From sequence record OZ035821.1: 40,079 nucleotides of DNA. One strand, 5' to 3'. Of this stretch, positions 14,190 to 19,764 are shown piece by piece; the stretch's first letter is position 1, and each line of letters begins with the position of its first letter. The DNA comes from Kayfunavirus PDP21P1. The notes beneath the pieces were generated by a model. The model searched no databases and was not told the origin of the DNA. It saw only the letters and a list, made by a program, of their open reading frames with translations. Made by a program: the position numbers and the translations under genes.

Positions 14190-14393
14190 ATGATTAAACT
14201 TATCGAATTTCTTGGTCGTACGGTGGTGCGTGGCTATCGTCGTGCTGCGGTACTGGAACGAAAGGTAGAAAAGAAGGCTGCCGATGGTGCTGCTCTGGCT
14301 GACAAGCTGACCATCGCGTCACTGGAAGCTGGCATGAAGGCACGTCAAGCTGACACCAAAGCTGACCAGTTGGCTCAGTTCTTCAAAGCCTAA
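14190..14393 (+). CDS. Hypothetical small protein (Ala/Lys-rich, predicted helical)
   Basis: 67-aa ORF with AAGGAG RBS, in the position of T7 gene 3.8 but without an HNH motif. Confidence 0.45.
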   Translation: MIKLIEFLGRTVVRGYRRAAVLERKVEKKAADGAALADKLTIASLEAGMKARQADTKADQLAQFFKA

Positions 14394-14411
14394 ACTATCA
14401 CCTTAGGGATG
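14389..14411 (+). promoter_or_regulatory. Degenerate phage promoter-like element
   Basis: CCTAAACTATCACCTTA^GGGATG; two mismatches in the -4/-3 TATA region, so possibly weak or inactive. Followed by a GGGAC-N10-GTCCC hairpin. Confidence 0.35.
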
Positions 14412-14456
14412 GGACCTTGAGTCTTGTCCCTTTGTTCGCATTTGTGATTAAGAAAT

Positions 14457-14535
14457 GTCTCCATAGCTCAAACGGTAGAGCGGCGGGTCGTTATGGCCTA
14501 TTGCGATTAGGGTTCGAATCCCCGTGGAGACGCCA
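14457..14535 (+). tRNA. tRNA-like element; anticodon arm unresolved
   Basis: Perfect 7-bp acceptor stem (GTCTCCA / TGGAGAC), discriminator G and encoded CCA; canonical D-arm (TA GCTC AAACGGTA GAGC); canonical T-arm (GGG TTCGAAT CCC). The 26 nt between D- and T-arms do not fold into a clean 5-bp stem / 7-nt loop by eye. Possible loop TTGCGAT (anticodon GCG) or GTCGTTA. Confidence 0.45.
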
Positions 14536-14546
14536 CTAAGGAGTGA

Positions 14547-16250
<1,704 letters not shown>

Positions 16251-16427: not shown

Positions 16428-16470
16428 TCTAGACTCAAGGCCATTCACATCGAGTGGCCTTTATGATTAG
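16428..16470 (+). promoter_or_regulatory. Conserved hairpin (AAGGCCA-N11-TGGCCTT), candidate RNase III site upstream of gene 5
   Basis: Flanks (TAGACTCAAGG ... TGGCCTTTATGATTAGAC) are near-identical to the copies at 298-342 and 9018-9063. Confidence 0.3.
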
Positions 16471-16489: not shown

Positions 16490-18505
16490 ATGTTTGACCT
16501 TAAGAGTATCTGGGGTTCTGACATCGAGACCAACGGTCTCCTTGATACAGTCTCCCAGTTCCACTGCGGGGTCCTGATTAACGCCGAGTCGAATGAGACC
16601 CTTAAGTATGGGGTAGCTCCGATGGTCGGTATCGTCGGTGGCTTCAAAGAGTATGTGCAGAAGGTTGAAGAGATTGCCGCATCACCTGATGGTATGCTGG
16701 TATTCCACAACGGTATCAACTATGACGTCCCGGCTATAGACAAGCTGAAGCGTCTGTACTTTGGGAAACGCTTTAACTTCCCGAAACACAAGATGATTGA
16801 TACCTTGGTGCTGGGGCGCTTGATGTATCCAAACATTAAGTTCTCAGACATGGGCGCGGTGAAAGCTGGTCGCCTTCCACCTAATATGATGGGACGTCAG
16901 TCTCTTGAGGCTTGGGGTTATCGTCTCGGTGAGATGAAAGGTGAGTACAAACACGATTACGTTGCCAAGTGTAAGGCTGAAGGCATCGAATATAAGGCTG
17001 GGGACGAATGGTTGTTCCCGTCTCAGGAGATGCTGGACTATAACGTTCAAGACGTTGTGGTCACACTGGCGTTGTTCAAGAAGTTCCTGACTGACAAGTA
17101 TTACTTCCAGTCTGAAAAGTTCGCTTTCGACCATATTTATGCGTTGCGTCTGGAACATGATGCTGCGTGGACCTGTGCGAAGATGGAACGTAACGGTTAT
17201 CCGATGAACACCGAGATGGTCGAAGGCTTATATCGTGAACTCACTGTAAAACGTGCAGAGCTGCTGGACAAGCTGCGTTCGACTTTCGGTAGCTGGTATG
17301 CACCGAAGGGAGGCAAGGAGTTCTTCAGGCACCCACGGACAGGAAAGGACCTTCCGAAGTATCCGCGAGTCGTGTATCCTAATGTCGGTGGCATCTTTAA
17401 GAAGCCGAAGAACAAAGCTCAACGCTTAGGTCTGGAGCCTTGCGAGTTCGACTCACGAGACACGATGAAGGGAGCACCATTCACTCCAATCACTTACGTT
17501 GAGTTTAATCCGGGAAGCGGAGACCACTTAGCGAAAGTCCTGATGGAGCGTGGCTGGGAGCCTGTGGACTTCACTGACACCGGGAAACCTGTGGTTGATG
17601 ACGAGACGTTAGAACACGTTAAGTTACCAGACGCAGAGGCTCAGGCTTGCGTAGAGCTGGTCCGTGAGTATCTGGTAGTCCAGAAGCGCATTGGTCAGGC
17701 GGCTGAGGGTAAGAACGCATGGTTGAAACTTGTAGGTCAAGACGGACGTATGCATGGTTCAATCAACCCCTGCGGGGCAGTAACCGGACGTGCGACGCAT
17801 AGTGCACCAAACATGGCTCAAGTCCCGGCTAACGGTGCTCCATATGGTGAGACTTGCCGTGGTGCTTTCGGTGCAGCTTGGAACAAGACGGATGGTAAGC
17901 CAGACCCTTGGATTCAAGTTGGTGTGGATGCCTCAGGTCTTGAGCTTCGTTGTCTGGGGAACCGAGCGGCTCCGTTTGATGGTGGTACCTATGCGAGGAC
18001 TGTGGTCGAAGGTGACATCCACTGGGCCAACGCAGTCAACGCTGGGCTAGCACCTAACGTACCACGCGACAAGTCGAGCCACGACCACGATTCTTTCCGT
18101 AACAACGCTAAGACGTTCATCTATGCGTTCCTGTATGGTGCAGGGGCAGCTAAGATTGGACTGATAGTCGGCGGTGGTAAGAAGGAAGGTTCAGCTCTCA
18201 TGAAGAAATTCATTGAGGGTACACCAGCCATCAAGGACCTCAGGGAAGCTGTGAGTAATACGTTAATCTCAGACTCTAAGTGGGTGGACGGAGAGAACAT
18301 CGTTAAGTGGAAACGCCGTTGGCTGCGTGGACTTGATGGTCGCCGTATCCACATCCGGTCACCCCACTCAGCACTGAACGCATTACTTCAAGGTGACGGT
18401 GCGGTGGTATGCAAGCACTGGATTGTTGAGACTGAGCGTATGCTGGAAGCCGAAGGATATGTCCACGGCTGGGATGGAGACTTTGCGTACATGGCATGGG
18501 TGCAT
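16490..18505 (+). CDS. 5: DNA polymerase, exon 1 (T7 gp5 homolog)
   Basis: Start moved to ATG 16490 (GGAGG RBS; MFDLKSIWGSDIETNGLL parallels T7 MIVSDIEANALL). Thioredoxin-binding loop present (GGIFKKPKNKAQR). Exon ends ...DGDFAYMAWVH, directly followed by TAA. Confidence 0.93.
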
Positions 18506-19103
18506 TAACATCATGGTGCACATTAAATCTGGTGAACTCGGTGAACTCCTAATGGGACAATACCGAGCCAAGCCATAGGGAGGATGTATGAGAGGCAAGA
18601 AGTTAATTCTTGAGGCCACTGAGACTGGCTGCATAATCCCTACGTCACATAAATTGAATAAGGATGGATACTTCCGAAAGAGGACTAACGGTGTCCTTGA
18701 GATGTATCATAGAACTGTATGGATTAAAGCTAATGGTCCAATACCTGACGGTTTCGAAGTAGACCACAAGTGTCGTAATAGAGCTTGTTGCAACGTCGAA
18801 CATCTACAAGTATTAGACCGGGACTCACACTTAGTCAAGACCAACAAAGAGCGATACGCTGCTAGGAAGCTAGAAGCACGAGACTACTGGGTAGAGACTG
18901 GGTGTACTGGAACGAAGTTAGCCGAAGTATTCAATGTGTCGTTCTCAGCCGCCTGTGGGTGGATTAGAGAGTGGAAGGCGTAGAGACTATCCGAAAGGAG
19001 TAGGGCCGTGGGTGAGATTCCCACGTAACCCGAAGCGCCAGACAGTCACCTCAAAGACTGATGATATAGTCCGACACTTCCAGTAATGGGAGAATACAGA
19101 AAG
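18506..19103 (+). mobile_element. Group I intron interrupting the DNA polymerase gene; carries an HNH endonuclease ORF
   Basis: Stop codon immediately after exon 1. Exon 2 restores DELQIACRTQEI...LDTEGKIGPTWKECH, the conserved T7 gp5 C-terminus, in frame. 5' splice site after U18505 with P1 pairing (exon GUGCAU : intron GUGCAC at 18516-18521, U.G at the junction). Intron ends in G19103. Possible P10 (intron CAUC 18509-18512 : exon 2 GAUG). Confidence 0.7.
18588..18983 (+). CDS. Intron-encoded HNH homing endonuclease
   Basis: 131-aa ORF within the intron, in a different frame from the polymerase, with GGGAGG RBS. Motif NGPIPDGFEVDHKCRNRACCNVEHLQVL; same family as the ORFs at 9230 and 32898. 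Confidence 0.8.
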   Translation: MRGKKLILEATETGCIIPTSHKLNKDGYFRKRTNGVLEMYHRTVWIKANGPIPDGFEVDHKCRNRACCNVEHLQVLDRDSHLVKTNKERYAARKLEARDYWVETGCTGTKLAEVFNVSFSAACGWIREWKA

Positions 19104-19259
19104 GATGAGTTACAGATTGCTTGTCGTACTCAAGAAATAGCAGAACGTACAGTAGAAATTGCTCAACTTGCTATGCGTAAGGTGGGTGAGTTCTATAACT
19201 TTAAATGTGTCCTTGATACCGAAGGTAAGATTGGACCAACGTGGAAGGAGTGTCACTAA
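19104..19259 (+). CDS. 5: DNA polymerase, exon 2 (C-terminal 51 aa including the D/E of the catalytic HDE motif)
   Basis: Translation DELQIACRTQEIAERTVEIAQLAMRKVGEFYNFKCVLDTEGKIGPTWKECH, against recalled T7 DEIQVGCRTEEIAQVVIETAQEAMRWVGDHWNFRCLLDTEGKMGPNWAICH. In frame with exon 1 after removal of 18506-19103. Confidence 0.85.
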   Translation, partial: DELQIACRTQEIAERTVEIAQLAMRKVGEFYNFKCVLDTEGKIGPTWKECH

Positions 19260-19558
19260 TGGCTATGACCAAACGCGCTATCGTAAGTTTCAACCTTAAG
19301 GCTGTACTTCCTACAGACCAAGAGGAAATAATCATTAAGGGTCTGCGAGAGCTGGCTAAAGGAGTTAACTCTGGTGAAATCAATCCTGACTTTAAGCAGA
19401 GCCATATGTTGACATTGTGGCTGACAGAGGGTATGGAAGCAGTGATTGAGCTTGTTCTGAGGGACAACTTTCGTTCAATGATTAAAGAGGCTGTACAGGA
19501 GTATTCAGATGCAGAGTTATTCAGCGTCTCACCAGCTACTGTGAGGTTCAAGCAATGA
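19259..19558 (+). CDS. 5.5: T7 gp5.5 homolog (H-NS-binding protein family)
   Basis: Start taken at ATG 19259, overlapping the polymerase stop (TAATG); N-terminus MAMTKR as recalled for T7 gp5.5. The track start at 19241 lies inside exon 2. Confidence 0.65.
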   Translation: MAMTKRAIVSFNLKAVLPTDQEEIIIKGLRELAKGVNSGEINPDFKQSHMLTLWLTEGMEAVIELVLRDNFRSMIKEAVQEYSDAELFSVSPATVRFKQ

Positions 19559-19764
19559 GTGAATACTTACGGGTCCTTGCGGCCCTCAAGTCCTGCCCGA
19601 AGACCTTCCAGTCCAACTATGTGCGCAACAACGCTGCACTTGTGGCTGAGGCTGCGAGTCGTGGACATCTAAGCTGCCTGTCTATGGACGGGCGTAACAA
19701 CGGTGCGTGGGAGATTACCGCTGAAGGCACCAAGTTCCTGAACCAACACGGAGGCTGTCTGTGA
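19555..19764 (+). CDS. 5.7: T7 gp5.7 homolog (inhibitor of sigma-S-dependent host transcription)
   Basis: 69 aa, same length as T7 gp5.7. MSEYLRVLAALKSCPKTFQSNYVRNNAALVAEAASRGHLSCL...GAWEITAEGTKFL is near-identical to the recalled T7 protein. Confidence 0.85.
   Translation: MSEYLRVLAALKSCPKTFQSNYVRNNAALVAEAASRGHLSCLSMDGRNNGAWEITAEGTKFLNQHGGCL

Follow-up and report, generated by a model that had tools for sequence, protein, structure and literature searches.

Introns in gene 5 of T7-like phages

An intron with its endonuclease at the gene 5 site is already known: such elements were described for T7-like phages in 2004, reportedly by Bonocora and Shub, who dealt with the polymerase genes of PhiI and W31 and their group I introns. 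The enzyme of the PhiI intron, I-TslI, is said to have been studied by the same authors in 2009 (Curr Biol 19:223) together with its counterpart, the free-standing enzyme of T3 gene 5.3. According to PMC3428280, the PhiI and W31 introns are self-splicing group I introns of subgroup IA2, with an HNH ORF in P6a and an insertion at Pol I site 881. I-TslI is listed among the intron-encoded homing nicking enzymes in PMC8845596, and the K1F polymerase is mentioned with a 'putative group I intron' in PMC4925675. HNH-bearing group I introns are also found in the family A polymerase genes of SPO1/SP82/Bastille, Pf-WMP3 and phiL7, as in the phage analysed here; however, their insertion sites are Pol I positions 674 and 676 instead of 881, and the endonucleases they encode are different. 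The Pf-WMP3 intron is likewise given as IA2, with its ORF in P6a, in PMC3428280.

The stretch of DNA analysed here (the window) comprises 40,079 nt of Kayfunavirus PDP21P1 (OZ035821.1), and all features discussed below lie on its + strand. Sequence comparison places it in Kayfunavirus: in the intron region its identity is 99.2% with Bacteriophage CHX131, and 97% with K1F. The records of K1F (DQ111067), CLB_P1 and 13a give gene 5 as a joined CDS of two pieces that flank a 'homing endonuclease'. K1F and CLB_P1 share with the window the genus (Kayfunavirus), the insertion site and the 598-nt length, and their full introns are 99.2-99.5% identical to the one described here; their internal homing endonuclease is gp5.3, and the differences from the window are of strain level only. 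Phage 13a (Teseptimavirus) has its intron at the same position, with about 80% nucleotide identity and 76% identity between the endonucleases. It differs in belonging to another phage genus, in a 3-nt length difference in the P1 loop and in compensated substitutions in P5, P7.2, P8 and P9.

The PhiI and W31 introns resemble the window intron in being IA2, in having the HNH ORF in P6a and in being inserted after the motif C His. Their records (AY769989 and AY769990, respectively) are partial ones; the 13a intron, at about 80% nucleotide identity, served as their proxy. The earlier note on this DNA had pointed out that group I introns were reported in gene 5 of some T7-like phages, as agrees with PhiI/W31 (PMC3428280) and with the joined CDS of K1F, CLB_P1 and 13a. 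It had left undecided whether site and endonuclease were the same. Judged from the sequence of 13a, the window intron occupies the same insertion site and carries an endonuclease of the same family as the reported T7-like introns.

The free-standing T3 gp5.3 belongs to the HNH_3 family like the window enzyme, with 49% identity over 95 residues and a DNA similarity of 78% over 123 nt. It is, however, only 101 aa long, is encoded downstream of an uninterrupted gene 5 and is without the C-terminal tail of about 30 aa (...WIREWKA) that overlaps P6a/P6 in the window.

Gene 5 exons and the position of the break

The family A DNA polymerase is encoded by an ORF ending at 18508 (Pfam DNA_pol_A, E 1.8e-27). 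Based on the ORF list and the Pfam match, exon 1 of gene 5 spans 16490..18505 (672 codons) and ends in ...GDFAYMAWVH, its last codon being CAU; a TAA follows directly after the His at 18506-18508. The ATG at 16490 is the likely start of the polymerase, with a GGAGG 7 nt upstream and the same start in the K1F joined CDS, and the GTG at 16454 is only the opening of the mechanical polymerase ORF. Exon 2 (19104..19259, 51 codons DELQIAC...KECH plus stop) reads DELQIACRTQEI...LDTEGKIGPTWKECH, has its stop codon at 19257-19259 and aligns to T7 gp5 654-704.

The joined-exon peptide aligns without gaps to T7 gp5 residues 641-704 (E 3e-28; PDB 1T7P and others), which places the break between H653 and D654. 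D654 is the motif C aspartate of T7 gp5, which binds the catalytic metal, and H881-D882-E883 is motif C of E. coli Pol I. In an intron-less Kayfunavirus, Acinetobacter phage vB_Aba_01KA, GGGTGCAC runs uninterrupted into GATGAG, and its gene 5 fragment reads ...GGGTGCACGATGAG.... Bounded by this relative and by T7 gp5, the insert is exactly 18506-19103, i.e. 598 nt (3 x 199 + 1). As its length is 3n+1, the genomic frame of exon 2 differs from that of exon 1, and precise excision alone restores the frame.

These results bear out the stop after ...FAYMAWVH at 18506-18508, read by the earlier note from the letters and present in the ORF list, as well as its placing of the break after the His codon and before the Asp codon of the HDE motif. 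The alignment of both exons to intron-less homologs that it had suggested is continuous against T7 gp5 and vB_Aba_01KA. Its statement that the C-terminus resumes in frame at 19104 stands as to the restart but not as to the genomic frame, which differs from that of exon 1 until excision.

Insertion at a catalytic motif is also typical of inteins, so an intein, or a translational bypass by recoding, would fit the site. We give this reading no credence: the His codon is followed at once by TAA, every frame contains stops, the length is 3n+1, intein motifs are absent with HNH_3 as the sole Pfam match, and the ORF has its own Shine-Dalgarno sequence and ATG. The exclusion of an intein proposed before therefore holds on the immediate TAA, the 3n+1 length and the ORF's own ribosome-binding site and ATG. 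The frame argument used for it is half right, as the HNH ORF differs in frame from exon 1 but shares the genomic frame of exon 2.

Intron identity and comparative structure

Gene 5 is almost certainly interrupted at 18506..19103 by a mobile group I intron belonging to subgroup IA2. The intron is 598 nt long and without P2, as delimited by Rfam RF00028, the exon boundaries and covariation. When the region alone was searched in E-value mode, Rfam Intron_gpI (RF00028) aligned in full (model positions 1-253) to 18496-19093, with 35.8 bits and E 2e-7, below the curated gathering cut-off of 50 bits. A gathering-mode Rfam scan of the whole window reported only a tRNA and not the intron. Homologous introns do exceed 50 bits, with 61 bits for MQM1 and 58.9 bits for Arash. 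The low score of the window intron may come from the 396-nt ORF insertion in the P6 region/P6a together with the absent P2.

Because the Rfam score is under the curated cut-off, the fold was checked comparatively. Homologous inserts were found by BLAST of phage genomes, and 12 further copies were taken, giving 13 introns with that of the window. The further copies are from Teseptimavirus 13a and BUCT788, Kayfunavirus CHRF_10037, Vibrio phage Vp_R1, Aeromonas phages PT2 and MQM1, Edwardsiella phage DT115P1, Klebsiella phage RCIP0053, the Gordonclarkvirinae coliphages PE006, SU7 and PAS59, and Salmonella phage Arash, whose intron is a sibling without the HNH gene. An IA2 structure was drawn on the alignment of the ORF-deleted cores, and pairs were counted over the 13 introns, which represent several phage lineages.

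Standard pairs occupy 95.9% of 779 cells, versus 36-43% in controls with the 3' partners shifted by 1-3 columns, a comparison in which the drawn structure is somewhat favoured as it derives from the same sequences on which it was tested. Compensatory changes, i.e. on both sides of a pair, occur in 31 of the 62 pairs among these 13 homologous introns, and none of 500 shuffles reached the observed value on any of five measures. All helices are supported (P1, P10, P3, P4, P5, P6, P6a, P7, P7.1, P7.2, P8 and P9), and the structure contains the group I core of P3-P4-P5-P6 and P7-P8-P9 with its P3/P7 pseudoknot. Folding the ORF-deleted core as a single sequence recovered P1, P4, P5, P7.1, P7.2 and P9 (z = -2.7) and neither the P3/P7 pseudoknot nor P8. 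Since the support from single-sequence folding was weak, the comparative test was preferred.

The group I assignment made in the earlier note is thus backed by the full-length Rfam match, by the IA2 fold with 31/62 compensatory pairs and by the continuity of the exons. Of the checks proposed there, the covariance-model search returned Intron_gpI at E 2e-7 on the region alone, though below 50 bits, and the P3-P9 fold is a complete IA2 core whose covariation exceeds that of all 500 shuffles.

Anatomy of the ribozyme

The window coordinates of each intron element were checked base by base against the sequence. P1 (18500..18521) pairs the exon GUGCAU (18500-18505) with the guide GUGCAC (18516-18521), U18505.G18516 marking the 5' splice site. 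All 13 sequences have this U.G, and the switch of the outermost P1 pair from G-C (7) to A-U (5) goes together with a change in the exon. The P10 guide UCAU (18511..18514) is complementary to AUGA at 19105-19108 in exon 2, giving 4 bp, with 86.9% of cells paired and 2 compensatory pairs. The last intron base, the terminal guanosine (omega G) at 19103, is a G in all 13 homologs. The 6-bp P1 with its U.G, the potential P10 and the terminal G had all been recognised before from the letters; the P1 coordinates hold.

In the core, the 5' strand of P3 (UCUGGUG, 18528..18534) pairs with its 3' strand (CGCCAGA, 19036..19042) in 100% of cells, with 5 of 7 pairs compensatory. P4 (18538-18543/18561-18566, within 18538..18566) encloses P5 (18547-18550/18554-18557), and both also appear in the single-sequence fold. 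P6 consists of GCC (18567-18569) and GGC (18977-18979), is 100% paired and shows a C-G/U-A/G-C switch at pair 107-148. P6a, CCAU (18573-18576) with GUGG (18971-18974), is 96.2% paired and three of its four pairs are compensatory. The two strands of P7, GACUAU (18985..18990) and AUAGUC (19066..19071), are 100% paired, form the pseudoknot with P3 and include 2 compensatory pairs, which come from the Arash sibling. The P8 hairpin (19043..19060; 19043-19047/19056-19060) is 96.9% paired with 4/5 compensatory pairs, and 4/5 pairs are also compensatory in the P9 hairpin (19077..19092; 19077-19081/19088-19092).

The subgroup follows from the segment between P7 and the P3 3' strand. According to PMC3428280, IA2 introns have P7.1 and P7.2 there, joined by G-U-A. 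The window intron has both elements of this signature within 18991..19031, namely P7.1 (18991-18992/18997-18998) and P7.2 (19003-19012/19020-19031), the latter with compensatory pairs, and the GUA linker between them (19000-19002) is invariant in 13/13 introns.

The endonuclease ORF

The intron contains an HNH homing endonuclease ORF of 131 codons at 18588..18983, of the I-TslI/T3 gp5.3 family. Its domain matches Pfam HNH_3 with E 9.4e-16 and 57.6 bits (cut-off 24.8); a search of the protein against solved structures gave no meaningful match. The ORF starts in the P6a loop, downstream of the P6a 5' strand, where a Shine-Dalgarno GGAGG (18579..18583) lies 4 bases before the ATG; the GGAG is kept in the homologs. 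At the other end, the last codons (...TGG AAG GCG TAG) supply the 3' strands of P6a (GUGG) and P6 (GGC), and P7 begins two bases past the stop codon. The 3' end of the endonuclease gene is therefore under a double constraint, from protein and RNA, and across lineages it covaries with the P6/P6a partners.

A T7-type promoter for the endonuclease was considered and rejected: 'AUAGGGAGG', located ahead of the ORF, looks like the end of such a promoter, but the phage's own consensus, CTAAACTATCACTATAGG, has no copy within the intron. This leaves the gene 5 precursor or the excised intron as the presumed message for the ORF. Elsewhere in the window, the motif CTAAACTATCACTATAGG(G/A) occurs at about 9-11 sites on the + strand (3119, 5927, 9004, 11044, 12015, 14390, 20760, 23581, 24568, 29119 and 37218), presumably the promoter set of the phage RNA polymerase.

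Two further small ORFs were rejected as genes and are annotation artefacts. The one at 18934-19086 ('unknown' in K1F) overlaps the ribozyme from P7 to P9; the one at 19086-19259 ('gp5.4' in one K1F record) opens at an ATG of the intron and overlaps both the ribozyme and exon 2. The second would matter if a free-standing HNH gene had cut gene 5 and the resulting fragments, of 672 aa and 57 aa (from ATG 19086), assembled into a polymerase without splicing. Its ATG does open a reading frame running into exon 2, some records give a separate 'gp5.4' or 'DNA polymerase' CDS, and phages are known with split essential genes bordered by homing endonucleases. However, the break parts adjacent residues of the catalytic HDE triad, and ATG 19086 lies inside the P9 hairpin without a Shine-Dalgarno sequence. 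The roughly 200 nt of non-coding flanks form a complete, covarying group I core with an Intron_gpI match, unexpected for a simple insertion, and the homologous PhiI and W31 introns are reported to splice (cited in PMC3428280). We consider such a split polymerase extremely improbable, and the spliced intron is the reading followed below.

Proposed splicing and homing

Based on its homologs, we infer that the intron splices in the window phage. The phage RNA polymerase would transcribe gene 5 through the insert, and the RNA would fold into P1, the P3 to P9 core with its P3/P7 pseudoknot and the P7.1/P7.2 extension. An external guanosine would attack after U18505, held in the U.G pair of P1; with exon 2 aligned by P10, the free 3'-OH of exon 1 would then attack after G19103. 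The ligated mRNA, ...AWVH-DELQ..., would restore motif C and encode a polymerase of 723 aa.

Homing activity of the element is likewise predicted. By analogy with I-TslI of PhiI, the HNH enzyme would cut or nick intron-less gene 5 near HDE in mixed infections, and repair would copy the intron into the cut intron-less alleles. Within the intron, the non-coding sequence on either side of the ORF (82 nt before, 120 nt after) is 100% identical to that of K1F and CLB_P1, and the HNH ORF is 98.7-99.2% identical, with three to five substitutions. In the final 100 nt of exon 1, identity to the same phages is only 87-88%, and exon 1 is 10-13% diverged beside the intron. Mismatches in exon 1 occur every 8-10 nt or so up to 18484 (K1F) or 18475 (CLB_P1), followed by none until 18660 in the HNH ORF. 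This sharp break in identity lies some 21-30 nt ahead of the insertion point and may be the recombination or co-conversion endpoint of a recent homing event. The insert is covered in only 18 of 182 related phage records. An intron far more conserved than the adjoining exon 1, combined with this patchy distribution, indicates recent lateral movement.

An element whose intron or endonuclease has decayed and no longer homes would have kept its splicing, the polymerase being essential, but would be passed on only vertically. The few residues at which the window HNH protein differs from that of K1F could be taken in this sense. We nevertheless regard such decay as very unlikely, since the ORF is intact with its HNH residues conserved in 12/12 copies, the intron identity to K1F/CLB_P1 is far above that of the adjoining exon 1, and the element is patchily present among close relatives. 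An element that still homes is therefore the preferred reading.

Downstream of the polymerase, identity to K1F/CLB_P1 drops from 97-100% in exon 2 to 72-75% at 19260-19759 (gene 5.5/5.7), which places a mosaic boundary right behind the polymerase gene.

Consequences for annotation

The correct product of gene 5 is a single 723-aa polymerase, join(16490..18505, 19104..19259). Several deposited genomes, CHX131, Ro45lw and CHRF_10037 among them, instead list three products: a 'DNA polymerase' cut short, an 'HNH endonuclease' and a small one named 'hypothetical protein' or, once more, 'DNA polymerase'. Automatic pipelines likewise split the polymerase into pieces. As the gathering mode of Rfam misses the intron, ORF-bearing phage introns of the same type are systematically under-called.

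A tRNA-like gene was also observed at 14457-14535, roughly 65 nt past the promoter-like motif at ~14390 and immediately ahead of the primase/helicase gene. ARAGORN calls it tRNA-Thr with anticodon CGU, and Rfam tRNA gives 37 bits (cut-off 29). Conservation of the surrounding 241 nt (14380-14620) is 90-99% in 177 phage records; among the matches listed, 1 of 12 has the gene annotated ('tRNA-OTHER').

Spread across phage lineages

The boundaries CAU/...G/GAYGAR (H/DE) are found in 12/12 polymerase-borne copies, including the window. All 12 copies at the H/DE site encode a homologous HNH protein of 131-142 aa. The lineages with this cassette comprise Studiervirinae, Gordonclarkvirinae, Aeromonas phage MQM1 and the 112-kb Vibrio phage Vp_R1 (Grimontviridae), as well as other Autographiviridae of Edwardsiella and the closely similar Klebsiella phage RCIP0053, which is taxonomically unclassified. 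The P7...P7' core motif was used to scan IMG/VR, and 80 of the 82 stretches listed were examined. The polymerase junction ...AAUACAG..G/GAUGAR is present in about 36 of the 80, and the rest are related IA2 cores in other settings. Taken with the copies from different families, these stretches show a single intron and endonuclease lineage widely dispersed over the invariant HDE site. In most of the records of Vp_R1, PE006, SU7, PAS59 and two other phages, the polymerase is annotated as separate fragments and not as a joined CDS.

A relative at a different site was observed in Arash (OQ632216). At 859-1136, this phage has a group I intron of about 280 nt, with a core homologous to that of the window's intron, a P2 hairpin and no HNH gene. 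The interrupted gene is a family A polymerase, split at motif B (...VTF/GLLYG...); its halves are named 'DNA polymerase nu' and 'DNA polymerase theta' in the record, which places a 'hypothetical protein' in the middle.

The element of the window is a textbook pair of selfish intron and endonuclease on an invariant catalytic motif and brings no new principle. The breadth of the lineage, on the other hand, may not have been described systematically before. That the intron and HNH cassette reached the same H/DE site in several unrelated phage lineages by repeated homing across families is a proposition for which we see the chances as evenly balanced. If true, one universally conserved target would have been hit repeatedly across phage families.
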